Positions 11,188 to 52,878 of a stretch of DNA of 64,000 nucleotides are shown one piece after another. Below the pieces are notes generated by a model, which was not told where the DNA came from, did no database searches, and worked only from the letters and a program-made list of their open reading frames with translations. This DNA is from Thermoplasmata archaeon (lineage in GTDB: Archaea > Thermoplasmatota > Thermoplasmata > Halarchaeoplasmatales > Halarchaeoplasmataceae): NCBI GenBank assembly GCA_046538435.1, contig JBKHIX010000001.1:184-64183 (forward strand), in the 5' to 3' direction. The first letter of the stretch is position 1. Each line of letters begins with the position of its first letter. The translations under genes were made by a program, and so were the position numbers.

Positions 11188-11216
11188 ATAGACTATTTTA
11201 TGTGATGAAAATAAAG

Positions 11217-11311
11217 TGCTCCTGGGGGGATTCGAACCCCCGTGATCGGCTGTCTTCGACAGTATCGGCCTCGAAAGGCCGAGATGATTGGCCGGACTAC
11301 ACCACAGGAGC
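11217..11311 (-). tRNA. tRNA-Glu(UUC) carrying a ~20-nt intron at the canonical 37/38 position (BHB-compatible)
   Basis: Reverse-complement reads GCTCCTG TG GTGT AGTCCGGCCAA TCAT C TCGGC CTTTCG|[AGGCCGATACTGTCGAAGAC]|A GCCGA TCAC GGGGG TTCGAAT CCCCC CAGGAGC A, followed by a T-run. 7-bp acceptor, G18G19, TTCGAAT T-loop. The 5' half closely matches archaeal tRNA-Glu as I recall it. Removing the 20 nt gives a 7-nt loop CUUUCGA. The intron fits helix-bulge(3)-helix(4)-bulge(3). Confidence 0.6.
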
Positions 11312-19559: not shown

Positions 19560-20950
19560 AGCACTATGCCTTCATGCATACGTGATGAATGCCACTTTCA
19601 CTCCACCCCTCACTGGTTATTTAAATAATATACAAACAATATCAAAAATGGATGTACAAAACATTACGGCAGAACATGCACAACCTAGATAAACAGGAAT
19701 ATGAAATACTGACAAGCCTGTGCCACTTATCTAAAAACGTATACAATGAAACACTATATGAGATACGACAACACTTTTTTGACACAGGTGAGAATCTAAA
19801 CTATCACGAACTCTGCAAGATCATCGGTAAGAAAAGTGAGAATTACAAAATGCTGATATCTCAAGCTGCACAACAGACGATGAAAAAAGTTTGCGAAGCC
19901 TTTAACTCCTTCTTTAAACTCAATAAGAAAAAGAAAAAGGGCGAATATGACGATGACGCTTATCCACCCGGATATCAGGATAAAGACGGTTTCTTCATAC
20001 TAGATTTTCACAACCAAGCTTTTCAGCTCAAAGATGATCACATCAGGATAGGTATAACAAAAAGCTTTAGAGAAAAATTTGACGTTAACAAAAAAGAGAT
20101 TCTAATACCATTCAAGCACGATAACATAACTGAAGAAAACATCAAACGCTTCCAGATCATACCCAAAGGTAAGGGTAATTACCTAGAGTACCGCATCGTG
20201 TATGAGACTGATAAAGAACCAATACAGAAGAATAAAAACAACTTCCTCTCGATAGACCTCGGCGTAGAAAATCTTGCTACCTACGTTGACCGCTCTGGAC
20301 GGTCGTTCATCATAGACGGCCGTAAACTCAAATCGATAAACAGATGGTATAACAAAAAGATAGCAAGATTGAAATCGATAAAAGATAAACAGGGTATCGA
20401 AGAGGATACAAAAAAAATCTCAAAATTGTTCCAAGACAGAAGTAACAAAATACACGATTACATGAACAAAACCGTTCATAAAATAATCGAGCACTGTAAG
20501 AAACATAAAATAGGTGAAATTGTTGTTGGTCACTCAAAAGGCTGGAAACAAGAAGTCAACATCGGTAAGGTAAATAACCAAAATTTTGTACATATACCTT
20601 TCGACAAATTAAAAACCAAACTCAAACATAAGTGTGAATACCACGACATAGACTTCACGCTGGTACCAGAACATCATACGAGTAAATGTAGCTTCCTAGA
20701 CAACGAACCAGTAGAACATCACGAAGAGTACATCGGTACAAGAGTAAAACGAGGACTCTTCAAAACCAAAAACGGCACTTTGATAAATGCCGATGTCAAC
20801 GCGGCTTTGAATATAGCCAAAAAAGCAGGTAAGCTCGAAACCATATCGGGACTAGAGTGTAGTGGCACTGTGGCTGTGCCTGAAAGAATAAGAGTGAATT
20901 GACACTAAACTTCTTCCGAAGCTTCCCTCTTTCAAGGGGGAAGAGAAGTC
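19560..20950 (+). mobile_element. IS200/IS605-family element carrying only tnpB (IS1341-like), with structured ends
   Basis: TnpB ORF plus an imperfect subterminal hairpin upstream (~19566-19594). Immediately after the stop (20922-20943) comes the hairpin CTTCCC-N10-GGGAAG and the GAAGCTTC palindrome. No tnpA. Confidence 0.5.
19652..20902 (+). CDS. tnpB: TnpB (IS605 OrfB) RNA-guided-nuclease-family protein with a degenerate zinc finger
   Basis: RuvC-I ([14 protein letters not shown]), RuvC-II E in [14 protein letters not shown], Ruv[17 protein letters not shown]. The usual CxxC...CxxC is replaced by KCSF...KTKNG. Confidence 0.8.
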
Positions 20951-27380: not shown

Positions 27381-27416
27381 CCGGCTAAAGCCGGAAAATA
27401 TTTTTTTATTTTTTCC
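27381..27416. terminator. GC hairpin CCGGC-TAAA-GCCGG followed by a T-run between convergent genes
   Basis: Read directly; 7 nt after the crotonase stop; the oligo-T also suits archaeal termination. Confidence 0.4.
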
Positions 27417-28206
27417 ACGGTTTTCTTCTGCGGCTCTTTCCTTTACTGTAGAAATAATATAGTAAGAAACCTGATACTGAAGCGATTATTATTACCGCTG
27501 CTATCCATCCAAGATTGCTGTCCCCTTCAACATAAAATGTCTTTTGTAGTAATCGTTCGTCTTTACTGAATCCTTCTTTATCATCAAGATTGTAATCCAC
27601 CCATATCTCTAGTTCATGTTCTCCTGAAGAATAGCCTTTTTTAGACCATTTCATAGTTAATGTTTTCCTTTCATCAGCCTCTAACGCATCTATTTTTGTT
27701 ATATTTTTTAGATCTCCATCAACGAACAAACCAACTTCAATATTGCTGATCTCAGTGTCAGTTGGATTCTGCACACTCACCGTTGTAGTTACTGGTTTTA
27801 TAGCATTTATTTCATAGTCATCTTCATTATATCTTGTTTCTCCGTCCTTTGCACAGTATGCTTTGAATGTTATCTTAGCATCACCTTCCTCTCGGACAGT
27901 AACTTTTACAGTAAAAACATTCGATTCTTCTGATTCCTGAGTCCTCTCATCTATCTTTACATCGATATTAGCATCAGTTTTGAGTGTCCAATTATCTGCC
28001 TCACTTCCAAATGATCCGCCTATCCTAACTCTGTAAGTGGCACTTTCATTAACAAAAACATCTTTCGGGCCTTTTTCTACAAAAATTCTAACCCCTGATT
28101 GAGATAAATCTTGAGCCTCAGTACTATAAATAGAAAGTGGTATCGTGAGCATCAATATAACCACGATAAAAATTGAGAGGTACCTAGTGGTCTTCATCGT
28201 ATCCAC
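27406..28206 (-). CDS. CARDB-domain surface protein with an N-terminal signal/TM and a C-terminal TM plus polybasic tail
   Basis: N-terminal hydrophobic segment, a CARDB-like region (SNIEVGLFVDGD...TLTMKWS...ELEIWVD), C-terminal IIIASVSGFLLYYFY + KGKSRRRKPWKK, three N-x-S/T sequons; overlaps the AglB stop by 13 nt. Confidence 0.5.
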   Translation of the reverse strand: MDTMKTTRYLSIFIVVILMLTIPLSIYSTEAQDLSQSGVRIFVEKGPKDVFVNESATYRVRIGGSFGSEADNWTLKTDANIDVKIDERTQESEESNVFTVKVTVREEGDAKITFKAYCAKDGETRYNEDDYEINAIKPVTTTVSVQNPTDTEISNIEVGLFVDGDLKNITKIDALEADERKTLTMKWSKKGYSSGEHELEIWVDYNLDDKEGFSKDERLLQKTFYVEGDSNLGWIAAVIIIASVSGFLLYYFYSKGKSRRRKPWKK

Positions 28207-31200
28207 CTCTTCTTTTTAAGTATGTAATATGCACCGACTGCCACTAATATCACTATCAATACCCACTGCCATGTTTTTAACGAAAATTCCTCTTCTTCAA
28301 GTCTTACTCCGCCATCTTTCATATCTATGGAACCAATCTGTGATAATTGTGGCATTTCCGTTTCATATTGTTCTGTAGAACTTTTTGTTTCATCACCTAC
28401 AGATGTTGCAGTTACTTCTATTTTTACATTCTTATTTGGACGTTCTCTGTTAGAAGTTAGTGAAATTTCTATAGATTTTTCCTCATGAGCATTTATCTTC
28501 TCTGTTATATTCACTACAGATGCATCCCAACCTAAGTTGCTCAGTTCTTTTTTATTTATAATGTTCATCGAATATCTATCTTCTCCATTACCTGTGTTGT
28601 TCAGATTGATGGTATACGTGATAATCCCATTACTGTATTTCTTGTTAGTAATCTCAGGTTTTAATTTGGTACCATATACTTGTTTAACCTCGATAGGTAG
28701 AACCTTTTCCAAGCTTTCATCTGAATTAGCTGAATCTATCCTTAATTTAACTGACTCGTGATCTACTGTTGCATTTTCATCTACTTTTACACTAATTTCT
28801 ACTGTTTTTGTTTCTTTTGGATTCAATGTAATATTTTCTTCTGAATATTTGATTTGCCAATTTGACGTCGAAGATAGTAAATAGGTATCTTTTGTGTTTC
28901 CTGTATTTTTGATTTGAACGTAATATCTTACTCTTTCACTCTGAGCTGCACTTTTCTTTTCTAAATCGTTCACAATTTCTAGACCATATTCTTTTACTTT
29001 ATTCAACCCTATATCTAAATCTCTACTAGTAGTAAATGTATAATCCTTATTAAACTTATATTCAGTCAAACCATATTGAGTATCTCTAGTAGTACTAGCC
29101 TTTAAAGTGTATTTTCCTTTTGGAACGACTGCTCTAAAAGTACCATCTTCTGATACTTCGAATGATTTACTGATCCCCTTACCCTCGAACTCAAGAGAAG
29201 CTGTTACTCTTTCTCCATCAATCGTTAATTTTCCATCGATTCGCACTGCGTCATTTAGATTGATATCCAGAGTCTTTTCCTCGCCCATCTTAAAGTTATC
29301 CAGATAAGAGTAGATATATTGTCCTTTCTTATGAGATACATATACCGTGTATGGGCCCTCAGCTAATCCTAGAGAATAAGCTCCGTCATCACCTGTTTTA
29401 ACAGACGTGGATAGTTTATCAGATATCAATGATATAAATTGTATCTCTACTTCGTCTATATATTGTCCATCGGCTTTCACATCACCGGTCAAAGTTGCAT
29501 TTATTAATTCTCTGTTAAGTTCTAGACTCGGTGATATCGGAGTAGAAATATCATATTCCTCATCATAATAATATCTTACATCCCTAATGGTTCCTTCAAC
29601 ATGCTCTTCAGTCTCATAGTCAATAATTATATTGTATTCGCCAGGAGTCAACGGTATGTTTATCTCTCCATCCTGGTTGCTTATCTCTGTTATTTCATAG
29701 CCAGAGAATTTATTTCTAAAGGTTACTGGAACATCGCCCTTTGTTTCTCCCTTGTAAATCACCTCGGGATTTACCATTACATTGTCATACAACGTGATAT
29801 TCAATTTAGTTGATCCATCGACTACTAATTTCGTCTGTTCAGAGATATCTTTGTCTCGGTTTATTGCTCTTATAGAGTATTCACCTTTTTCCAAATAAAC
29901 GATGTACTCACCTTGTCCAGTTATCTCTTTTTCCTGCGGCCCAACAAAGGTAACTTCAGCATCTACTTTTTCATTATTTTTATCTTTTAGAATACCAGTC
30001 ACTCTATATTCATACACCGGAGTCAAATCAAGATTTAAACTGTCATCACCTGGTGAAATATCAATTGATTTTGAGAGCTCATATTTTGCCTTACCATCAT
30101 CCAACAAGGTATCTATAATCACATTATACTTTCCAGGTTTTAAATCAGCAGTATATGACGTGCCATCAGCTTCTATTTGTTTTGTAATCGCGCCATCACT
30201 TTCTGCTTCAAACTTGATACCTATGTCATCAACATAAGTATTATCGAAAGTCAAATTACCTTTTACAGTAACATTATCAGCGGTTAGTGCAATATTAGAT
30301 TCAAATTCCTTTCCTGGCCTATATGTTTTGGTCACCGTTTCGAAGCCTTCTTTAGAGACCTCAACTTCTGTTTTAGAATCCGGCATCACTAAACTATAAC
30401 TTCCATCTCTTAGCGATGTAAATGTTGCTGTCTTATCACTAGATTCGATCTGTACATTTGCTCTGATTCCTTCACCTTCATCATATTCTCCGTCATTGTT
30501 CATATCTCGATAGATTCTACCTTCTACTAATTCACCTTCTTTGGCCAATAATGAAAGGTATCCAGAACTTTCAACAGTGATTTCATTTAAACTAAATTTC
30601 TTCTGTGCCGTAGTTTCCTTCCAACCATAAACACTGTAAGTACCTTTTGTAAGATCAATATCGAATACACCTGTATGATTACTGGTTACAACAGCTTCTT
30701 CAGAAGGATTGTTTTTGTTAACGAACAAAATGTTGAAATTGTTTTGTCTGAAACCTGCGGAATCCACATGACCTCTTACTCTATAACCCTTCTCGAACTC
30801 AGCTATATAAGTTTCATCCTCTGTGACTGTCACTGTTCCCATATGTACCTGATTTTCTGAACCCTTTTGATATTGACCATATATCCTGTAAGATAACGCT
30901 GGTACTTTGATAGTTGTTTGTCCATCTTCAGCGGTTGATACAGTCCTAGTATAACCGACTCCTTCTTTATCATATATTGATAAACTTTGATATCTAATCC
31001 TATTACCATCTTTGACTGTTTTCAACTTTAATTCATGAGCTTCTGAAATTGATATCTGCTTATCTATAGGAGAACCTGCTTTTATCTCAAAAGTCATCGG
31101 TCCTTTCTTTAAACAATAATTCTCATCTCTTACACTTAAATTGTATGTTCCTGGTACAACATTATCAAAGGTATAATTATCATCTTCTCCTGCTGTAAAG

Positions 31201-34200
31201 GTGGTCTCTTCGTACTTGTCATTATTAACATTCTCAAGCCTTAATGTAAATTCTTTTACCCCAATCTCTTCATCTACTGTGTAATTACCTTTGACTGTAC
31301 CAGTTGAAACAGAGATATCCTCTTGATTATCTGATCCTGGCTCTAATTTTACTCCTGTCAGTTCAGAACTACCAGGGGTATCAGCTTTCACTGTATATTG
31401 GCCGGGTACCAAGTTATTTATTTCGTAACTTCCATTTTCTGCACTAATGGTGTATTCTATTCCTGCTGTTTTGTTTTCTATTATCACATCAGATGAAACC
31501 AATGTATCATTATTTTTATTATATTCCTCATTACCGTCAGTATCGATATAAACTCTTCCAGATAAGTTAGCAGTATCTACGGTAAAATCATGTTTTTTAT
31601 TGTAATCCCAAACGCCATCTGAGTTTTTATCAACTTTTTCTCTCATGGCCTCTTCATCAGTAACCTCAAATTTTTCTTGACCTAGATTTATGGATTCTGT
31701 TTTGAGTAACTTACTGTTTGCAGCCTGATCACTATCTATTCCCCCATTAGTCACTACAACTGAATTGTTCCCTTCAGGAAGTATAACCTCATATCGTCCA
31801 TTTGAATCTGTTCTGGTAACATCATGTGGTGTGAATTCTTCATCTAAAACCGTCACGTTTGCATTAGGTATCGGCTGACTATCGTTTGTTTTCACTGTAC
31901 CCTTTAAGATCGCACCATCGTAATATTCTAAGAATACTACCCCTTGATTCATATAACTTCTAGCAGATCTATCTACTGTCCCTTTCTCCTCTTGTTGATA
32001 TTCTTTTGCCTTATCATATGATATGGCTCTCCAAGAATCGGTATGATTCTCATAATCTTTATAAGGATTATAATAGGCAGTTCTGTAAACCATGCTGAAG
32101 TGCTTCATTCCCCAACTTGGCATTGGGTTATATTGTTGTTGTTGTTGTTGTTGTAGTTGTTGTTGTTGACTACCCTCTAATTGGTCAATACCAGGTATTC
32201 CTTGGTCCAATCCAATTTCTTTACCAGAATAACCTGCCATCACACGATACATTGTCGTGTTATAGAACATTGGCTGGAAGTTTATATTGTAATCAACAAT
32301 CTGGACATTCTCTGGTACGTCTTCTCTTGAATCATATTCCATACCATCACTACCAACCAATTTGATACGATAGAAATCGACCGGTGATCTCTGTTCTCCA
32401 CCTTCGTCTATTCTATATCCTGCTAATTTAGCAGGTGCATAAAATATACCTGTATTTCTAGCGGATTTTGGGAATAATCTGGAATCGGCTGCGAGATATT
32501 TTATTCTTTTATCTAACTCTAAAGATACATCTCTATACAGTGAGGACGTTGTACCTACTCCTTCCTCCGAAAGCATAGCCATAGTATAAGCGTATTTAAC
32601 GTTCTTGGGATGGATATCGTCAGCTCTTGGATAATATCTCTCTGGATTGTTCAATACCTCTTCTTTGTATTTTGGCTCACCAAAATTCGTCATAACCTCT
32701 TCAAGCTTTTCTGTTTTAGCTTCTCCTATATGTTTTATCAATATTTCCTTAACATCCTCGTTAAATTCTCCTTCTTCTTGTATAGGAAGTTCCAACAATC
32801 TTACTGTCATTAAAGATATGACTTCGGATTCATTTTGAGCCATCAATATATTACCCGCCAACATGTATCCTACCTGGAAGTTATCAGCAACTGTTGGATG
32901 TTCTCCTTCTTCAATACATTCGAAACCATAGTCCCACCAACTGAGGAAAGCTGGCCGATCTTTAGGCTCTAAATCTTTATCCTTTTCACTGAACCAATCC
33001 CAAGCTGCCGGCCAATAATCAATAGGTTTATCCATTTGATAACCAAAGGCCCCTAGATACCACGAGTCCTGAGAACTTACATTATAATCTTCAGGTCTCA
33101 TAGCATTAGGCAACGAATTGTAAATCTGATCATTATATTCTTTTTTATCATCAGAAGGTATTCCAGAATCAAATGCATAAAGAACATTTGGCATCAACAC
33201 TAAGAATATCACAGTAAGAATCACTAAGATATGTCTGATCTTTATGCCTTCACGAAGCGCCCTAATATAGTTTCCTCTGAATTTTCTAAATCTAGTAGCT
33301 ATCGAACTGAAGTCTGCCTTATCTATGAGCAAGGCAATGATCCAACCAGCAGTCAAGGCAAATGCTGGTGAAGAATTGAAGATAAATCTAGCAGCAGATG
33401 TTGCCATGTATATTGCAAAAGCAGTCCAAACTAAAACAAACATGAACGGCTTTCTCCAATACTCTTTGAGATGCCAGATCGCAAGAGCTATTCCTAGGAA
33501 TGCCAAGAAGAAAGTTAGAATACCAAAAGATAAGACGATATTACTGAATTGAGGTGCCTGTGCCTCTGCTATAGTACTATACAGTTTATTCTGTATAAAG
33601 TAACCTCCTGCTGAAGAAATTGGTTCTAGTAAACTAGGTAATACGGTAGCGCCTAGACCAATATATATTGCTCCGCCTATTCCTAAAATTGAAAATACTA
33701 GTACCCAGGGAAGATCTCTGGTTATAGTGAAGAATATTCCTACAGCGAAAGCCACCAAGAACATTAATAGAGGTATATCGAACCATTTACCTGGTCCACT
33801 GCTGAGTAAACCAGTGAATATATTGCTTCCTATATTAGCACCTATATAATATGGGGCAGCCACAATAAACGCAACAGCCATAGTTACTCCAACACATGCA
33901 GTAATACCCAACGAATCTTTACCTTGAAATCTATCCACAATTAATTGGAATGCAAAGTAAACAAGTATAATAACCATCACATATGGATAACCTTTCCATG
34001 TCAGAGCTACCGTTGCTGTAGCCATCCCCGCTAAACCTGCATAAAGCAGTGATTTTTTGTTCTTGGCTGCAAATCTACTCAAACCGCTTTTGATCTTCGA
34101 CCATTTAGTCCAGTCTGTGACCCAATTTACCTCTTCAGATATATCTTTTAAAGATCTCATGAAGAAATAGAAAGCTGTTACCGCAAAGAACAGATATATT

Positions 34201-34754
34201 GCATCGTGGTCACCGTTTGTTATTACACTTCTTTGAAGGTGACCTGAACTAACTGCTAGTAAGAATACTGCAGCTATTCCTGCTTTTTTACCGAATGTAT
34301 CTCTGCCTATTAGGTAAACAGGGAATATCGTAAGAGCGCCCCATATACCTGTTGATAGGATGAATGAATATGAAATCGCCTGGCTCATATTTCCAACAAA
34401 TGGATATATAACGTAACCACCTAAAACAACTGACCAACCATAAATTGGGGGTCTTGGGTTACCTGCACCAAACGGATATTTACGTAAATTATCATATAAT
34501 AAATGCTGATGATTTTCTGCAATATAATTAATTATTCTCTCATAATAATAAGCGTCTGAACCTCCTGATAGAAGATACGGTGTTCCAAATTTTGTTGCTA
34601 GTTCAAATGCAAAGTAAACTCGTATGAACAGAGCAATAATGAAAACTCCTACCAAGCAGGTCAACGTTCCCCAGTTTTCTTCCCACCAACGCGTTTTGGA
34701 GGAAGATTGTTCCTTTTCTCTTGAAATTTTATCAAGCCATCTAAAGCTCATCAC
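28194..34754 (-). CDS. aglB: AglB/STT3 oligosaccharyltransferase fused to a ~1300-aa array of beta-sandwich repeats (CarboxypepD_reg-like, CARDB-like) and a C-terminal TM anchor
   Basis: The N-terminal ~870 aa carry the multi-TM STT3 domain with GGSDAYYYER and WWDYG (LSWWDYGFECIEEG) motifs. Then comes the polyQ QQQQLQQQQQQQ. Then at least 8 repeats of the GxYxV...NGxYxxxxLxPGxY type and two CARDB-like modules. The protein ends with the TM anchor WVLIVILVAVGAYYILKKKRWIR. Confidence 0.85.
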   Translation of the reverse strand: MMSFRWLDKISREKEQSSSKTRWWEENWGTLTCLVGVFIIALFIRVYFAFELATKFGTPYLLSGGSDAYYYERIINYIAENHQHLLYDNLRKYPFGAGNPRPPIYGWSVVLGGYVIYPFVGNMSQAISYSFILSTGIWGALTIFPVYLIGRDTFGKKAGIAAVFLLAVSSGHLQRSVITNGDHDAIYLFFAVTAFYFFMRSLKDISEEVNWVTDWTKWSKIKSGLSRFAAKNKKSLLYAGLAGMATATVALTWKGYPYVMVIILVYFAFQLIVDRFQGKDSLGITACVGVTMAVAFIVAAPYYIGANIGSNIFTGLLSSGPGKWFDIPLLMFLVAFAVGIFFTITRDLPWVLVFSILGIGGAIYIGLGATVLPSLLEPISSAGGYFIQNKLYSTIAEAQAPQFSNIVLSFGILTFFLAFLGIALAIWHLKEYWRKPFMFVLVWTAFAIYMATSAARFIFNSSPAFALTAGWIIALLIDKADFSSIATRFRKFRGNYIRALREGIKIRHILVILTVIFLVLMPNVLYAFDSGIPSDDKKEYNDQIYNSLPNAMRPEDYNVSSQDSWYLGAFGYQMDKPIDYWPAAWDWFSEKDKDLEPKDRPAFLSWWDYGFECIEEGEHPTVADNFQVGYMLAGNILMAQNESEVISLMTVRLLELPIQEEGEFNEDVKEILIKHIGEAKTEKLEEVMTNFGEPKYKEEVLNNPERYYPRADDIHPKNVKYAYTMAMLSEEGVGTTSSLYRDVSLELDKRIKYLAADSRLFPKSARNTGIFYAPAKLAGYRIDEGGEQRSPVDFYRIKLVGSDGMEYDSREDVPENVQIVDYNINFQPMFYNTTMYRVMAGYSGKEIGLDQGIPGIDQLEGSQQQQLQQQQQQQYNPMPSWGMKHFSMVYRTAYYNPYKDYENHTDSWRAISYDKAKEYQQEEKGTVDRSARSYMNQGVVFLEYYDGAILKGTVKTNDSQPIPNANVTVLDEEFTPHDVTRTDSNGRYEVILPEGNNSVVVTNGGIDSDQAANSKLLKTESINLGQEKFEVTDEEAMREKVDKNSDGVWDYNKKHDFTVDTANLSGRVYIDTDGNEEYNKNNDTLVSSDVIIENKTAGIEYTISAENGSYEINNLVPGQYTVKADTPGSSELTGVKLEPGSDNQEDISVSTGTVKGNYTVDEEIGVKEFTLRLENVNNDKYEETTFTAGEDDNYTFDNVVPGTYNLSVRDENYCLKKGPMTFEIKAGSPIDKQISISEAHELKLKTVKDGNRIRYQSLSIYDKEGVGYTRTVSTAEDGQTTIKVPALSYRIYGQYQKGSENQVHMGTVTVTEDETYIAEFEKGYRVRGHVDSAGFRQNNFNILFVNKNNPSEEAVVTSNHTGVFDIDLTKGTYSVYGWKETTAQKKFSLNEITVESSGYLSLLAKEGELVEGRIYRDMNNDGEYDEGEGIRANVQIESSDKTATFTSLRDGSYSLVMPDSKTEVEVSKEGFETVTKTYRPGKEFESNIALTADNVTVKGNLTFDNTYVDDIGIKFEAESDGAITKQIEADGTSYTADLKPGKYNVIIDTLLDDGKAKYELSKSIDISPGDDSLNLDLTPVYEYRVTGILKDKNNEKVDAEVTFVGPQEKEITGQGEYIVYLEKGEYSIRAINRDKDISEQTKLVVDGSTKLNITLYDNVMVNPEVIYKGETKGDVPVTFRNKFSGYEITEISNQDGEINIPLTPGEYNIIIDYETEEHVEGTIRDVRYYYDEEYDISTPISPSLELNRELINATLTGDVKADGQYIDEVEIQFISLISDKLSTSVKTGDDGAYSLGLAEGPYTVYVSHKKGQYIYSYLDNFKMGEEKTLDINLNDAVRIDGKLTIDGERVTASLEFEGKGISKSFEVSEDGTFRAVVPKGKYTLKASTTRDTQYGLTEYKFNKDYTFTTSRDLDIGLNKVKEYGLEIVNDLEKKSAAQSERVRYYVQIKNTGNTKDTYLLSSTSNWQIKYSEENITLNPKETKTVEISVKVDENATVDHESVKLRIDSANSDESLEKVLPIEVKQVYGTKLKPEITNKKYSNGIITYTINLNNTGNGEDRYSMNIINKKELSNLGWDASVVNITEKINAHEEKSIEISLTSNRERPNKNVKIEVTATSVGDETKSSTEQYETEMPQLSQIGSIDMKDGGVRLEEEEFSLKTWQWVLIVILVAVGAYYILKKKRWIR
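32134..32169. repeat. (TTG)n/(CAA)n trinucleotide microsatellite encoding the polyQ linker of AglB
   Basis: ttgttgttgttgttgttgttgtagttgttgttgttg read directly from the sequence. Confidence 0.9.
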
Positions 34755-34847
34755 ATTTCACCTGTATAAGATGACACGCCTTTGCCATGTAAGCACCCCT
34801 ATATATAGATTATTCACATATGAAGGGGTATAATTTATTATTATATA

Positions 34848-36558: not shown

Positions 36559-36587
36559 CAGACCTGTCTGATGACCAGACTAAGATT
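36559..36587 (-). other. 3' half of the 23S rRNA bulge-helix-bulge processing stem
   Basis: Complementary to 39502-39530 with bulge(3)-helix(4)-bulge(3) geometry; see findings. Confidence 0.7.
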
Positions 36588-39501
<2,914 letters not shown>

Positions 39502-41519: not shown

Positions 41520-42542
41520 ATGGGTGTCAGGATAAAAGATATTATCCGTAGTAATGAGATAAAATTAAGTGATCTTGAAAATAAAATTATTGCTGTAGAT
41601 GCATACAATATAATATATCAATTCTTATCGAGCATCAGGCAGAGAGATGGATCACCATTAAAAGACTCCAAAGGTCGTATAACTTCACATCTTTCAGGCT
41701 TGTTGTACAGAAATGCCAATCTTATAGAGAATGGTATTAAGTTGGTATACGTTTTTGATGGTAAACCTGACATTATGAAAGAAGGAACCCTGGAAAAACG
41801 TAAAGAAAGAAAAAGGAAGGCTGAAAAAGAGTATGAAGAAGCTCTTGAAAAAGGAGATCTAAAAACTGCTAGAACGAAAGCTCAACAAACATCAAGAATG
41901 GATGCGGAGATAGAAGGCAGCGGTAAAGAATTACTCACACTATTAGGTATACCCTGGATACAAGCTCCTGCAGAAGGTGAAAGCCAAGCTGTTCATATGG
42001 TAAAAAAAGGTGATGCTTGGGGTGTAGGCAGTCAAGATTACGATTCTCTGTTATTAGGCGCACCCCGTTTGATTAAGAATCTAACAATCACCGGAAGAAG
42101 AAAGCTGCCAGGAAGGAACGAATATAAAATGATAAATCCCGAGTTGATCATTTTAGAGGATGTTTTAAATGAGGTTGAAATTACCAGAGAACAACTAATC
42201 GATATAGGCATATTGTGTGGTACGGATTATAATGATGGTGTAAAAGGTATAGGGCCCAAAAGAGGACTGAAGTATGTTAAAAAATACGGTGATCTTGAAA
42301 ATGTATTGAAAGAAAAAGACAAAGAAGTCAATAACTACGAAAGAATAAAAGAACTTTTTTTAAATCCCAAAATTACCGAAGATTATTCTATAAAATTCAG
42401 AAAAATGGATGTGGATGGAATAAAAAATTTCTTATGCGAAAAACATGAATTCTCTGAATCGAGGGTCCAGAGTGCTTTAGATAAGATCAAAGAGGGAAGA
42501 GATAAAGAAAAACAAACGAGTTTAAGCGCTTTTGGGGACTAA
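41520..42542 (+). CDS. fen: flap endonuclease 1
   Basis: XPG-N (IAVDAYNIIYQFL), XPG-I (YVFDGKPDIMKE ... GDAWGVGSQDYDSLLLG) and a C-terminal PIP-like tail. Confidence 0.9.
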   Translation: MGVRIKDIIRSNEIKLSDLENKIIAVDAYNIIYQFLSSIRQRDGSPLKDSKGRITSHLSGLLYRNANLIENGIKLVYVFDGKPDIMKEGTLEKRKERKRKAEKEYEEALEKGDLKTARTKAQQTSRMDAEIEGSGKELLTLLGIPWIQAPAEGESQAVHMVKKGDAWGVGSQDYDSLLLGAPRLIKNLTITGRRKLPGRNEYKMINPELIILEDVLNEVEITREQLIDIGILCGTDYNDGVKGIGPKRGLKYVKKYGDLENVLKEKDKEVNNYERIKELFLNPKITEDYSIKFRKMDVDGIKNFLCEKHEFSESRVQSALDKIKEGRDKEKQTSLSAFGD

Positions 42543-45500
42543 CAAAACTCGTCTAAACTTGGTGTGGAAACTTTATCATTTTGGAATAAAGATTCTATCT
42601 GTTCTTCCAGCTGCTTAACTCTCTGGTAAAGATAATCAGGTACATCATACTTTTCTACCATCTCCAATGAATGGTTAAGATACTTTTTAACGCTCCCTTC
42701 ATGTATAGTGAGAGTGAGATTGCCTCCACAATCACACTCTCCACTCAAAGGTATTCTCCTGTATTTCGTATTACATTTTGTACATCTTATTGTTTGAACA
42801 CCAAATTTATTGAAATTACCGATGAGGTCAGGGATGAAGTGGTCACCTATTACTCTGCTGACAACATCAGCTGTATCAACTGCTCTTATTAGGTCAGCCA
42901 CTTTTATCTGGGCATTCATCTTATCAGTCATCTTTCCCAATCGAGTATACTTACTCATTGTTGGTCCTTCAGATATATCAGCAGTATCATGAGTATATCC
43001 AAATCCCTCGTATTGACTTTCCGTCTCTAACCTATCCTCTGCGAGCTCCATAATCTCAGAAACTTCCTTAGGATCAGGATAATCAACAGTTCGTTCATAG
43101 AATTCTAACGGATACTCCCAAATTGTATCTACATTATGAGCTTCACTGTCTATCTCAGAAGGATCTATTCTGGTTGTTAAAACCAGAGGGGCATCCATTA
43201 GACCCCCACGCTTTTGAGGTAAGAATTCTTCTGAAAAATTTAGTAGTCCATCTAGGAGAAGCATTATGCAGTCCTCATCTCCGTCACAATTCCTTCTTTT
43301 AGCTGCGTGGAAGTATGGGTGTGCATAACCAGCTCTACCTTTATGGAATCCGATCAACCTACCGAGAACACCTCCCGAAGTATGTGGAGCCAATCCAACT
43401 ATCAGCTCACCAATCATATCTTCTTTTCTTTCTGCATCATAATATGAATTTAGGCCATAGTATTTCTCTAAAAGATCATCAATAAATTTTGCAACTTTTA
43501 CGATATACTGTCCTGCGCTATTGGATGCGATAAAATCCTGGACCTTGAGTTCTAACATTTGATCAGGATCTTTTAGTTCCTCACCATGGATGTCCTTTTT
43601 ATATCCTAATTCCCTAGCTCTTTCAACCGATAATCCTATCTCGCTGGGTTTAAAATGGGTCACGGGTAGATCTGTCATATCATATCTTGTCGTACCATCC
43701 TTAAATACGTAAATCCCATACTTTGCTCTTAAAATTCCTTTCTCCAACGCCTCAGGTGTCTTTGTCTTGGTCATCAACCCTTTTACACCCTTGATTTTCT
43801 GGACATTTCCACCTTCCCCTAAATTAGATAAGGCCTGTCGGAAAATATTCTTCACAGGTATTTTCTGTTCTTTTGGTTCATCTATTATCTCACATCTACC
43901 ATCACAAGAACATCTCACTGTTGCACTTGTCCTCCCGCACTCTTTACATCTTCTAGCGCTTACATCAACTTCAATAACACCCTCTTCCACAGCTTTTCTA
44001 ACCAGTCTCTGTGATCCTCCCGCGCTACCTACAGGGAAAAGTGTATGGACCGGGGGGCTCATCTTTCTTTCTTTTGCTTTCTCTGGTCTAGCCATCCTTG
44101 AGCCTATGGAAGTCGGCCCCTTACTTCTGATTGGGACTCCAGCTAACTCAGATACATAATTAATAGGGTCTTCTTCACTACTCTCGTTGATTTTTTCTGA
44201 CGATTCTAAGTCTAAACCTAGAGTAAACGATAAAGATCGATAATCTTTAACTACAATTTTCCCATCCTCTAAAGTATGTGGAATACCGATCTGTTCCATT
44301 AATTCTTTGATTTTTCTTTTTTTGTCTATCTTTAGAGCATTTTCAATTTTTCCTTCCTTCGATATCCAATCCCTCAATTCTTTTATTTCATCCACATCAA
44401 CATAATCCCAAAAATAGATAAATCTTGGATGTAAAGGATACCCCTTTTCTTTTGACAATTCAACCGCCTTTTTATCATCTAATTTACTAGCTGTTATATC
44501 CTCATCTATTTCTTGCTTCCACCATTCATGACAGTAGGCACCTGGAACTAAAGGATGATTGTTTTCAACGAACTCGCCATATGGTATGAGGATCTCTCCA
44601 ACATCTATTATCTCTTTAACTTTTAGATTCAACTCCTTGGCCTCTTCTGCGGTATCAACTCTAGTTACCGTCCCATCATGAAGTAAAACAGTCGGACCTT
44701 CAATCGAGTCACAAGGAGTCACTGCACCTGCTTTCCCTGGTCTTTCGATCTTGACCTGAGTACCTAAGGCTAGGAATTCTTCTGTTAAGTACATAGTAGC
44801 TGGGTTTATAGCGATAGATGCTAATCCCCCTGTTCTAGCCCTACCATATCTTAATCTAAATCCTCCTTTTCTACTAGGGTGTCCAAAAACAGGTCTTCCT
44901 GCTATGGTTTCTTTTATATACTTATAATTTGGTTTGACTCCTTTACTTCCTTCTTCTTCCTCTTCTTCATCAGATTTGCTCTTACCAGACATGTGTTTAT
45001 CGATATATTCATCTAAAAAATCCCATCCGATACCTAATTTTTCAACGTGCTTTTTTAGTTTTTGTGCTTTAAGACACATACCTTCAGCTATTACAAGACA
45101 AGCACCGCCTCTCACTCTATTTGTATCAACTCTTGGTAAATCTCTGTTACCAGATACTTCTGTATCAGTACCTTCACCACTTATACCTACAGGACAACCA
45201 TCTACTATCAAAGATATCTCTTCATTTGAAGGTGTGTATTGAAGTCCTAATGATTTCTTATAGAGAGGGATCTCTTCCTTGAATCTCTGTATTTCATCTT
45301 TACTCGCTTTAAATTCACCTATACCCAACTCCCGTCGAACCACATCAGCTATCAGTACACTCATGGCCTGACCGGTTCCTCCTGCTGAACGGATAGGGCC
45401 TGCAAATGATAATTCAACATAGTCACTTCCGTCAAAATTCTCCCGAATCTTTACTCCGCCGATACCTTCCAACGGAGCAACAAGAATTCCTTCAGTTAAT

Positions 45501-45799
45501 ACTGCTAAACCGATCCTTACTGCATCCTCCAATCTTTCACCAACACTACCCTCATCCCTAGATGCTACTTCTTTCGCAATTCGGATTGATACCTCTTCCC
45601 TATCGTATTCTTCACTAAGCTCTCGAATTTTTTCAGCAGTGTTTTTAACTCCAGTCAGTTCCTGTGCCCTCAAAGCTAAGTCCTCAGCTCGTGGGATTTC
45701 AACTTCAGTCGTAGGGTCATATCCCATATTCCTCGCTTTTTCAGCTAACTGATAACATCCCTCTGCTTTGTCTTCCAGACTTTGGAAATATTGTTTCAT
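42539..45799 (-). CDS. polC: DNA polymerase II (PolD) large subunit DP2
   Basis: 1086 aa; internal CKECGRTSATVRCSCDGRC and C-terminal CTKCNTKYRRIPLSGECDCGG zinc fingers; conserved DP2 catalytic-core pattern. Confidence 0.8.
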   Translation of the reverse strand: MKQYFQSLEDKAEGCYQLAEKARNMGYDPTTEVEIPRAEDLALRAQELTGVKNTAEKIRELSEEYDREEVSIRIAKEVASRDEGSVGERLEDAVRIGLAVLTEGILVAPLEGIGGVKIRENFDGSDYVELSFAGPIRSAGGTGQAMSVLIADVVRRELGIGEFKASKDEIQRFKEEIPLYKKSLGLQYTPSNEEISLIVDGCPVGISGEGTDTEVSGNRDLPRVDTNRVRGGACLVIAEGMCLKAQKLKKHVEKLGIGWDFLDEYIDKHMSGKSKSDEEEEEEGSKGVKPNYKYIKETIAGRPVFGHPSRKGGFRLRYGRARTGGLASIAINPATMYLTEEFLALGTQVKIERPGKAGAVTPCDSIEGPTVLLHDGTVTRVDTAEEAKELNLKVKEIIDVGEILIPYGEFVENNHPLVPGAYCHEWWKQEIDEDITASKLDDKKAVELSKEKGYPLHPRFIYFWDYVDVDEIKELRDWISKEGKIENALKIDKKRKIKELMEQIGIPHTLEDGKIVVKDYRSLSFTLGLDLESSEKINESSEEDPINYVSELAGVPIRSKGPTSIGSRMARPEKAKERKMSPPVHTLFPVGSAGGSQRLVRKAVEEGVIEVDVSARRCKECGRTSATVRCSCDGRCEIIDEPKEQKIPVKNIFRQALSNLGEGGNVQKIKGVKGLMTKTKTPEALEKGILRAKYGIYVFKDGTTRYDMTDLPVTHFKPSEIGLSVERARELGYKKDIHGEELKDPDQMLELKVQDFIASNSAGQYIVKVAKFIDDLLEKYYGLNSYYDAERKEDMIGELIVGLAPHTSGGVLGRLIGFHKGRAGYAHPYFHAAKRRNCDGDEDCIMLLLDGLLNFSEEFLPQKRGGLMDAPLVLTTRIDPSEIDSEAHNVDTIWEYPLEFYERTVDYPDPKEVSEIMELAEDRLETESQYEGFGYTHDTADISEGPTMSKYTRLGKMTDKMNAQIKVADLIRAVDTADVVSRVIGDHFIPDLIGNFNKFGVQTIRCTKCNTKYRRIPLSGECDCGGNLTLTIHEGSVKKYLNHSLEMVEKYDVPDYLYQRVKQLEEQIESLFQNDKVSTPSLDEFC

Positions 45800-51085: not shown

Positions 51086-51661
51086 ATGAAACTAACCGAC
51101 AAAGAAATCAAAAATATAAAAGAGATGCGTAAAGACGGGTTATCTCTAAATCAGATCGCTGATAAGTTAGAAAAAGATGAAAACGAATTTAAAAATTATA
51201 TAATCAAAGAGAAGTTGTTGAGTAAAGAATTATATGAACTATCACTGCAGTCAAAAGCCTTTAAGATGTTCGACGAAGGAAAAGATGCTGTTGATCTTGT
51301 TAAAGAGGGTTACTGTACAGCAGCTGAAGCCGGAGTTTTAATGGAAAAATATTCCGATCTTTCTGGAGCTGAAGACCAATCCGAACAAATCAAAGACATG
51401 CACAGAAAAATATCAACACAGGTAGGTCTTTTAGGGAGCAGAGTTGCCCGATTAGAGGTGAAAATCATGAACTCGTTATTATTGCCAAAAACCTTTGAAT
51501 GTCCTTCCTGTGGTAACAAAGGTAAGTACGAAGTGGGTGTTGTTTGTAATGCATGTGGACAAGTAGCAACATACATACCAGATGTGATAAAAGACAGTTT
51601 ATCTGGGAAGATTGTAGACACTTCTGTTTACGTGGGCAATAAGGAAGATGAAGAAGACTAA
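51086..51661 (+). CDS. HTH plus C-terminal C4 zinc-ribbon protein (possible transcription factor)
   Basis: N-terminal IKEMRKDGLSLNQIADKL HTH-like; C-terminal CPSCGNKGKYEVGVVCNACG. Confidence 0.35.
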   Translation: MKLTDKEIKNIKEMRKDGLSLNQIADKLEKDENEFKNYIIKEKLLSKELYELSLQSKAFKMFDEGKDAVDLVKEGYCTAAEAGVLMEKYSDLSGAEDQSEQIKDMHRKISTQVGLLGSRVARLEVKIMNSLLLPKTFECPSCGNKGKYEVGVVCNACGQVATYIPDVIKDSLSGKIVDTSVYVGNKEDEED

Positions 51662-52878
51662 CTAACATAAGAGATGGTATCCATCTCTCTTTCCAAAATG
51701 CTTATTCGTTTTTCATCTAAAGCATTTGGATTTACTATTACTAAAAATATACTTTTAGTTTCAGAAACGATATCCACCATATGACGGATAAATTTAATCG
51801 ATGCTTCAAAATTCACGTTACTTATAAGATATTCCAATCCATCCAATAATATTAAAGAATCTTCTTTTATCTTCTTTTCTAATACCCAACTCAATCTCTC
51901 TAAGTTGGGCGATATAATATCGTATATCTCGCTTTCCTTATCTGTTAACCATTTAACCTCAGCTTCTTTTAAATCAAATTCTTCTTCTATCCGTTTGGGA
52001 TTAAGCCTAGAGATTATGAACTTGTGAAGGTCCTTTTCTATTTTCTCGAATAGCTCAAATACTATATCAGCACTTTGCTCTTTGATAAGATAACTTCTGC
52101 TTTCTAAAACATCTAACTTTAACTCTCTATTTTCAACCTCTTTATCTATATATTGTTCTAATGTTTTTCTCACATTATCTAAAGTTACCTTCTCATCTAA
52201 AAGATCGGAATAAGCTGATATCCTAGTTAAAGCCCCCTCGATGAATCTTACGTTCTTTTTGATGTTTTTAGCTATGAAATTCAACACATCTGGTGGTGTA
52301 TCTATACTAAACTGCTTTGATTTTTCTTTGATTATCTCTTTTCTGCTTTCAAACGTGGGTGGTAATATATCAACCACCAGGCCAGATTTAAATATTGATG
52401 CTAACCTTTCCTCAACCTCTGTTATTTTTTCAGGTGAGCGGTCACTGGAAATCACTATCTGACCGCTTCCATTTTGAATTTCGTTAAATATGTGAAAAAG
52501 AGAATGTTGGGCTTCAGGTTTTTCAGTTATAAACTGAATATCGTCTAATAATAGAGTATCGAATTCAGAGTATTTTTCTTTGAATTTTGCTAATTCATCC
52601 TGCTCTAAATACTTATTAAAATCAGTAACTAATTTAGAAGTCGTGATGTATTTTATTTGTCTATCTGGGAATCTTTTAGATAAAGCTCTCCCAATTGCTT
52701 TCATCAGATGGGTTTTACCCAACCCAGATTCACCTTTGATAAATAATGGATTGTAACTTCTATCGGGATTTTTTGAAACAGCCACAGCAGCTGCACATGC
52801 AAATCGATTATTTGGACCAACTATAAAATTTTCAAAACTATATCTGTTGGGAAACTCATCTTCAATATCTTTTGACAT
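51658..52878 (-). CDS. DnaA-type AAA+ ATPase (DnaA domain III homolog) with a non-DnaA C-terminal DUF835-like domain
   Basis: FENFIVGPNNRFACAAA, NPLFIKGESGLGKTHLMKAIG, LLLDDIQFITEKPEAQHSLFHIFNEIQNGSGQIVISSDRSPEKI and VRFIEGALTRISAYS all align with bacterial DnaA/Hda domain III. The C-terminal 150 aa (…LLDGLEYLISNVNFEASIKFIRHMVD…) lack DnaA domain IV. Confidence 0.7.
   Translation of the reverse strand: MSKDIEDEFPNRYSFENFIVGPNNRFACAAAVAVSKNPDRSYNPLFIKGESGLGKTHLMKAIGRALSKRFPDRQIKYITTSKLVTDFNKYLEQDELAKFKEKYSEFDTLLLDDIQFITEKPEAQHSLFHIFNEIQNGSGQIVISSDRSPEKITEVEERLASIFKSGLVVDILPPTFESRKEIIKEKSKQFSIDTPPDVLNFIAKNIKKNVRFIEGALTRISAYSDLLDEKVTLDNVRKTLEQYIDKEVENRELKLDVLESRSYLIKEQSADIVFELFEKIEKDLHKFIISRLNPKRIEEEFDLKEAEVKWLTDKESEIYDIISPNLERLSWVLEKKIKEDSLILLDGLEYLISNVNFEASIKFIRHMVDIVSETKSIFLVIVNPNALDEKRISILEREMDTISYVS

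Follow-up and report, generated by a model that had tools for sequence, protein, structure and literature searches.

We report that the AglB of a Thermoplasmata archaeon, encoded on the minus strand of a 64,000-nucleotide stretch of contig JBKHIX010000001.1 (hereafter the window), is a giant protein in which a complete oligosaccharyltransferase (OST) catalytic subunit is continued by about 1,150 further residues, comprising ten prealbumin-like and two CARDB-like domains (~1040-2135) and then a transmembrane (TM) helix. Archaeal AglB is usually regarded as a stand-alone enzyme of ~600-1,000 residues, and the archaeal OST is taught as a single-subunit enzyme. To judge from its sequence relatives, the giant form is not a one-off, being the typical AglB of a large part of Thermoplasmatota. 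It is accompanied by the gene for a 263-aa membrane protein (hereafter the partner); the two genes are predicted to be translationally coupled, and theirs appears to be the only pairing at the locus that is kept across orders. A preliminary description of this DNA had remarked on an AglB of roughly double the usual size; the size holds, at more than twice the usual, but the form is widespread in Thermoplasmatota and its members are already in public databases, where they carry automatic names only. In the searchable full-text literature, whose coverage leaves out subscription journals (e.g. those with AglB phylogenies, such as Mol Phylogenet Evol), we found no description of the giant AglB, of an AglB-CarboxypepD_reg fusion or of the partner. 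The genes and their putative signals are as follows:

28194-34754, minus strand: coding sequence of the giant AglB, of 2186 codons if begun at GTG 34754, with a probable start at ATG 34751 and the stop TGA at 28196-28194
27406-28197, minus strand: partner gene for a 263-aa membrane protein, its ATG overlapping the TGA of the giant gene as ATGA; CARDB match and structure model
34758-34808, minus strand: putative expression signals of the giant AglB gene itself, a TATA-like CTATATATA and a Shine-Dalgarno-like AGGTGA, read by eye

The giant gene is a single open frame, as had been claimed, with no N and no internal stop. Its first codon, GTG at 34754, directly adjoins the ATG at 34751, and a database protein annotated as 'Thermoplasmata archaeon' (P0001), 100% identical to the giant, begins at that ATG; since this protein has 2185 aa, ATG 34751 is likely to be the true start. 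Upstream of it, by-eye reading finds CTATATATA at 34808-34800 and AGGTGA at 34763-34758, 6 nt ahead of the ATG, which are putatively the promoter and ribosome-binding site of the giant gene.

Evidence that the fusion is a genuine and conserved one comes from its relatives. A search covering 5.8 billion proteins gave 298 matches, and the figures given here for full-length members rest on the best 120 of these. They include at least 117 distinct relatives of more than 2,100 aa (all but one of 2,139-2,250 aa, the longest reaching 2,370 aa), nearly all spanning 94-100% of the query at 30-75% identity, which come from assemblies in NCBI, JGI, ENA and Logan and show the same architecture in more than 100 independent assemblies. 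The 117 full-length members are collinear; in 50-residue bins along the arm the gap fraction is 0.01-0.07, and conservation in their alignment is 0.31-0.48 in the arm versus 0.5-0.74 in the catalytic part. Moreover, when the 11 prealbumin-like domains are compared with those of a Methanomassiliicoccales relative of 34% identity, 7 match their positional counterpart best. Likewise, a scan of one genome per species recovered 566 related stretches, and in the best 80 of these most of the giant is covered, or all of it up to the contig end. Carriers among these 80 are hypersaline Thermoplasmata (Ca. Natronoplasma, Halarchaeoplasma and Saliniplasma), Methanomassiliicoccales including Methanomassiliicoccus, and the DHVE2-group, so that the comparison with AglB homologues of related genomes finds the same fusion in many Thermoplasmatota.

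With residues 1-1040 as the query, an exhaustive HMMER search yielded 301 clusters (50% identity) at E<=1e-30, and the best 150 of them are mostly of 2,040-2,780 aa, reaching up to 3,174 aa. Among the 94 listed representatives of at least 2,041 aa, almost every one terminates in a hydrophobic segment and then basic residues, a C-terminus that is absent from a mid-size class typified by P0247 (1,090-1,355 aa, with few prealbumin-like domains). An apparent short form, P0210 (954 aa), proved to be a frameshift-split giant on a long-read contig. We also compared the contigs of the mid-size family with those of the giants for a second AglB in the same genome, a weak test, which gave no match. Two even larger AglBs, P0173 (2747 aa, locus L089) and P0263 (3155 aa, locus L090), occur without the partner gene, one of them with a subtilisin-like protease following it.

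Residues 1 to ~1035 constitute a complete AglB, with a multi-TM domain of the GT-C fold and an external domain that ends in one prealbumin-like beta-sandwich. The elements of this part are:

33165-34691, minus strand: multi-TM GT-C/STT3 catalytic membrane domain, residues 22-530, from Pfam STT3, the profile match to 3waj and hydropathy peaks
34536-34565, minus strand: first acidic loop motif GGSDAYYYER, residues 64-73, with G64, G65, D67 and Y70 invariant
34203-34211, minus strand: second acidic motif D182-H183-D184, with H183 and D184 invariant
33564-33575, minus strand: TIXE motif T394-I395-A-E397 (TIAE, residues 394-397), with T394, I395 and E397 invariant
32925-32939, minus strand: WWDYG motif, residues 606-610, invariant, followed by the invariant D624-N625-F626
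31935-33164, minus strand: external globular core of the canonical AglB, residues 531-940, from the TIGR04154 alignment and PDB matches 3vgp and 3vu0 at 564-648
32133-32168, minus strand: polyQ run QQQQLQQQQQQQ, residues 863-874, a lineage-specific insertion within the external domain of AglB
31716-31931, minus strand: prealbumin-like domain 1, residues 942-1013, highly conserved and part of the canonical AglB

Pfam STT3 (PF02516) matches residues 66-515 with 62.3 bits against a cutoff of 24.5, and the family profile matches the Archaeoglobus fulgidus AglB (3waj) with E 2.6e-20 over profile positions 18-470, which is the TM domain. Across 40 diverse members G64, G65, D67, Y70, H183, D184, T394, I395, E397, R456, W606-G610 and D624-N625-F626 are invariant. 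By homology to the structures of PglB and of A. fulgidus AglB, the TIXE motif and the conserved Arg presumably lie in external loop 5. Downstream of WWDYG, where D624-N625-F626 is invariant, reading by eye could not place a canonical DxxK or MxxI motif. Since the testable catalytic motifs are invariant, the giant should transfer a lipid-linked glycan to Asn-X-Ser/Thr as other AglBs do, and it is probably an active OST.

In the preliminary description the normal AglB, with GGSDxYYYxR and WWDYG, was confined to the first ~870 residues and joined to the repeats by a polyQ linker. The enzyme is indeed complete, but its boundary lies at ~1035: the haloarchaeal-type AglB model TIGR04154 of NCBIfam aligns to residues 33-1034 (though with 251.3 bits against a cutoff of 450), the 978-aa relative P0257, which carries one prealbumin-like domain and ends just past it, aligns to residues 34-1022 of the giant, and residues 901-1000 are highly conserved in the family alignment. 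The polyQ run, for its part, is situated in a bin (851-900) with a gap fraction of 0.24 and is missing from the family consensus; being gapped in a quarter of the family, the region is an insert within the AglB domain and not a linker between enzyme and arm. With canonical archaeal AglBs, such as A. fulgidus AglB-L (PDB 3waj/5gmy) and those described by TIGR04154, the giant shares the GT-C domain, the acidic, TIXE and WWDYG motifs and an external domain with a terminal beta-sandwich, the match of residues 33-1034 to TIGR04154 being end to end; what it adds is the ~1,150 residues of the arm, a second anchor and a conserved partner. The mid-size (P0247 family) and short (P0257) AglBs, whose catalytic parts are 29-38% identical to that of the giant, likewise continue from the catalytic part into one to few prealbumin-like domains, but have neither the C-terminal TM nor the CARDB-like module nor a partner gene. 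In appearance they are earlier steps, or alternative ones, in this accretion of domains.

The arm and the C-terminal membrane anchor consist of:

29058-31583, minus strand: prealbumin-like/CarboxypepD_reg domains 2-11, residues 1058-1899, ~84 aa each and almost linkerless; all-beta, pLDDT 86.9
28350-29012, minus strand: two CARDB-like/FixG_C-like beta-sandwiches, residues ~1915-2135, with invariant NTGN-type motifs
28197-28274, minus strand: C-terminal TM helix 2161-2179 and polybasic KKKRWIR, from hydropathy, a helix in the model and the family C-termini

An iterated family HMM finds 11 prealbumin-like domains, namely that at 942-1013 and ten within 1058-1899, and then the two CARDB-like ones; an array of CarboxypepD_reg-like repeats had been announced with at least eight copies, and is present with this higher count. 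The CARDB-like modules, the terminal TM and KKKRWIR were recovered by HMM and hydropathy just as described, and the beta-sandwich nature of the extension is borne out by several copies of Pfam CarboxypepD_reg (135 bits), by SdrD_B (PF17210) at 1064-1153 (47.8 bits versus a cutoff of 29.7), by NOMO_5th (37 bits versus 27), by FixG_C and, over the last domain (2021-2131), by the NCBIfam 'choice-of-anchor T' model. Prealbumin-like domain 2 resembles SdrD-B and has acidic loops that are conserved, D1042, G1047, D1050 and D1071 being invariant or near-invariant inside or adjoining the SdrD_B-type domain, and the B-repeat type is also matched by the family profile among sequences of known structure (PDB 10ps_A, E 4.2e-7). 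In the CARDB-like domains the NTGN-type motifs have N1950, G1952, N2053, G2055 and N2056 invariant. An AlphaFold2 model of residues 1040-2186, built from a 36-sequence alignment, is all-beta with a pLDDT of 86.9 and a terminal helix at 2161-2181 (1122-1142 of the model). With the multi-TM domain at the N-terminus and the TM at 2161-2179 with its basic tail, the double membrane anchoring foreseen for this protein is found; topology derived from homology and the positive-inside rule predict an extracellular arm, a cytoplasmic basic tail and anchoring at both ends.

The giant has 25 N-x-S/T sequons, and 20 of them, the number that had been estimated by eye for the extension, are past residue 870, where composition predicts 14.4. 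Over the 117 members the arm has on average 16.9 sequons against 8.7 expected, an approximately two-fold enrichment, with 114 of the 117 above expectation, and individual sites are conserved, such as N1752 (102 of 117 members) and N903 (83 of 117). The arm is therefore very probably N-glycosylated. The suggestion that it is a substrate of its own catalytic domain gains from this enrichment and from conserved sites such as N1752, and such self-modification is probable in the sense of being plausible.

The partner, for which the preliminary description had given a start at 28206, has its true start at ATG 28197. The rest of that account was found, in that the protein has a CARDB domain (PF07705, 33.5 bits versus a cutoff of 22.7), three sequons, a C-terminal TM and a polybasic tail (...RRRKPWKK). 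Two CARDB-like beta-sandwiches make up its middle, and the hydrophobic helix at its N-terminus is probably a signal anchor or a signal peptide. Its structure model, too, shows two beta-sandwiches, flanked by a helix at the N-terminus and a TM helix at the C-terminus. In 73 related loci with downstream DNA, an ORF whose length by a simple start-codon rule is 255-295 aa directly adjoins or overlaps the stop of the giant, and 67 of the 73 are homologous to the partner by phmmer (E 1e-127 to 4e-6), which upholds the AglB-centred gene pair as a conserved two-gene module. These loci include Methanomassiliicoccales whose other neighbour genes differ, and the partner is also present next to giants of the 2,104-aa class, while it is absent beside AglBs of the short (978 aa) and the mid-size (1290 aa) kind, themselves devoid of a C-terminal module. 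Profile comparison with hhalign aligns residues 47-194 of the partner to 1932-2105 of the giant (probability 97%, E 7e-11), and thus the partner is a distant paralogue of the last two domains of the giant, with the same plan of a C-terminal TM and basic tail.

Two further observations concern this gene pair. The cytoplasmic tails of the two proteins (28197-28220 and 27406-27430 in the window, and loci L003-L083) co-vary by clade, with giant tails of the form ...KKRW[ILF] going with partner tails of the form ...RRRPW in 30 of 31 loci, and giant tails of the form KGVFxRRKR with partner tails of the form YRRPxKRRK in other clades; either a common contact in the cytoplasm or plain common ancestry might account for this. 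At one Methanomassiliicoccales locus (L001, 15448-15771) a small thioredoxin with a weak Pfam match to OST3_OST6 directly follows the partner, a gene that is not in the window.

The closest protein of known structure by sequence is a eukaryotic one. Of the PDB entries, the family profile matches NOMO2 best (9c7v_B, E 1.4e-23), with A. fulgidus AglB behind it. In NOMO (Nodal modulator, a subunit of the BOS complex of the ER) 12 domains of the prealbumin-like type lead to a single C-terminal TM with a short tail, and the protein acts as a rod-like spacer of defined length (PMC11186639, PMC8327139). The giant shares this plan in architecture only, with its 11 prealbumin-like and two CARDB-like domains, the TM at 2161-2179 and a 7-residue tail. 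The HMMER matches are non-collinear, profile positions 1730-1826 aligning to NOMO 130-231 and 1073-1268 to both 270-471 and 902-1082; because the stretches are out of order, they point to a shared domain family and plan and not to orthology. Unlike the giant, NOMO has a signal peptide and stands as a protein of its own, with no fusion to STT3. The annotated ORFs of the window, a subset of all its ORFs, include none resembling nicalin or TMEM147, the partners of NOMO. Similarly, with the stalks of SdrD-type B-repeats and the Gram-positive pilins (SpaA, FimP and BaTIE) the giant has in common an SdrD_B domain, acidic loops and tandem rigid Ig-like units, but it is without a ligand-binding A domain, an LPXTG sortase signal or evidence of isopeptide bonds, and is tethered at both ends. 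The eukaryotic OST subunits ribophorin I/Ost1 and OST48/Wbp1 and the TRAP alpha and beta subunits, like the giant and its partner, place non-cytoplasmic beta-sandwiches and one C-terminal TM near STT3, and TRAP alpha and beta are mutually paralogous (PMC11186639), as are the partner and the C-terminal module of the giant. The likeness is topological only: neither giant nor partner has a Pfam match to ribophorin I, OST48 or TRAP at E<=0.01, and the top 50-60 structural matches of the giant arm and the partner include no subunit of OST or TRAP.

We moderately favor a reading in which the arm is an N-glycosylated extracellular strut or arch of fixed geometry that, together with the partner, forms a two-protein, multiply anchored scaffold placing the enzyme in the envelope. 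We infer this from the constancy of domain count, order and length down to 30% identity and from the presence of the partner in most loci. The chain leaves the catalytic part, runs outside the cell through ten prealbumin-like and two CARDB-like domains and re-enters the membrane by one TM. The arm would serve as a structural element and not as a variable adhesin, possibly stiffened by Ca2+ through its SdrD-like acidic loops, its membrane-proximal end would pair with the partner, and the two proteins would hold the enzyme in a defined envelope position. Cultured relatives in Methanomassiliicoccales are often without an S-layer, with none in M. alvi, and two membranes are reported for M. luminyensis (PMC10673518). 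Several points count against this interpretation. The architecture of the arm is well supported, but its role is inferred; the pTM of the arm model is 0.45, so that inter-domain geometry and overall shape are uncertain; and the pairing of giant and partner draws on gene linkage and paralogy only. As the largest variants (2747 and 3155 aa) have no partner gene, the partner is not universally required. Furthermore, DHVE2-group relatives also have the giant form, and Aciduliprofundum is described as having an S-layer, which makes the link to wall-less cells a loose one.

Among the alternatives, an accessory platform is the least improbable, though still an unlikely one: arm and partner would hold nascent or unfolded substrates, or dock AglB at the Sec translocon, in the manner of the luminal OST subunits or of NOMO in the BOS complex. 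The rank of NOMO2 among the PDB profile matches, the NOMO_5th score and the common overall plan (PMC11186639, PMC8327139) speak for it, and so does a single-pass partner with external beta-sandwiches, like eukaryotic accessory subunits, but the NOMO similarity is single-domain and non-collinear, and the comparisons with ribophorin I, OST48 and TRAP, like the inspection of the annotated ORFs for nicalin- or TMEM147-like genes, were negative in the scope given above. A more far-reaching reading, an obligate complex of giant and partner in which a NOMO-like rod acts as an envelope ruler or strut, or couples the enzyme to the secretion machinery, seems distinctly improbable to us; such a rod may bridge the gap beneath an outer layer, or that between the two membranes reported for Methanomassiliicoccus, and in the boldest form archaeal prealbumin-domain arms beside STT3 may be evolutionary relatives of eukaryotic NOMO. 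That the arm serves at the surface as an adhesin or in ligand binding, with AglB merely its membrane anchor, is slightly less probable than the platform and slightly more so than the obligate complex. SdrD_B, SpaA/prealbumin and CARDB types are usual in bacterial adhesin stalks and pilins, and the arm is exposed and sequon-rich. Yet it has no distinct ligand-binding head domain, the anchoring of both ends does not present a tip outward, and domain number and length stay nearly fixed over deep divergence, with most domains finding their positional orthologue, unlike in variable adhesin arrays. Hence of the label 'adhesin-like' in the preliminary description the domain types stand and the implied variability does not, and the 'S-layer-like module' of the same account finds no counterpart in the structure searches, which yielded only generic Ig-like matches.

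Lower still we place the idea that the C-terminal TM and basic tail are a sorting signal of the archaeosortase type that is removed, leaving the mature arm lipid-anchored or released. PGF(E)-like tripeptides do occur just before the terminal helix in P0166, P0176, P0180, P0182 and P0212, distant giants of 2,350-2,470 aa, P0166 has sub-threshold matches to archaeal CTERM models (Loki/Heimdall-CTERM), and the last domain of the window giant matches 'choice-of-anchor T'. The window giant, however, has no PGF-like motif ahead of its C-terminal helix, neither it nor four of the distant members with PGF-like tripeptides match a PGF-CTERM model of NCBIfam, and with 251 against 450 it falls below the cutoff of TIGR04154, the archaeosortase-A-associated subfamily. 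An artefactual long ORF (two genes read through as one, or an assembly chimera) or a catalytically dead scaffold has nothing in its favor beyond the unusual size. Assembly chimera, chance ORF and frameshift are ruled out by the conservation of the architecture across genomes, and the concern about a chimeric join is settled by the same fusion being collinear in at least 117 full-length relatives at 30-75% identity, with more than 100 independent assemblies in agreement and the short P0210 itself a split giant; a pseudoenzyme or dead scaffold is ruled out by the invariant catalytic motifs.

The surroundings of the gene pair, on a contig of ~36% GC and archaeal character, are housekeeping in nature, with a tRNA synthetase upstream and beta-oxidation-type genes downstream. 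A Wzx-like flippase and a UDP-GlcNAc 2-epimerase are encoded within 5 kb of the giant; among the annotated neighbours there is no large agl cluster. Elsewhere in the window we observed the following genes:

51658-52878, minus strand: 406-aa ORF with a Bac_DnaA ATPase domain (Pfam, E 3.8e-58) fused to DUF835, unusual for an archaeal contig
19652-20902, plus strand: IS605 OrfB/TnpB-type gene with a Cas12f1-like TNB domain, amid isoprenoid and glycan genes
36586-39500, minus strand: stand-alone 23S rRNA; the window has neither a 16S nor a 5S rRNA
11216-11311, minus strand: 96-nt tRNA gene, anticodon unassigned by ARAGORN, probably intron-containing
42539-45799, minus strand: DNA polymerase D large subunit without an intein, whose homologue at the start of locus L003 has an intein with a LAGLIDADG domain

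In sum, a whole section of the Thermoplasmatota, from gut Methanomassiliicoccales through the DHVE2-group to hypersaline lineages, has an AglB of more than twice the usual size with a 13-domain external arm. Cultured carriers probably exist in Methanomassiliicoccus, and the proposed role is thus open to experiment. If the arm and the partner matter functionally, they would give the archaeal OST its first candidate accessory components, and, if the structural reading is true, these archaea would have a glycosylation enzyme that doubles as a structural element of the envelope in lineages that are often without an S-layer.

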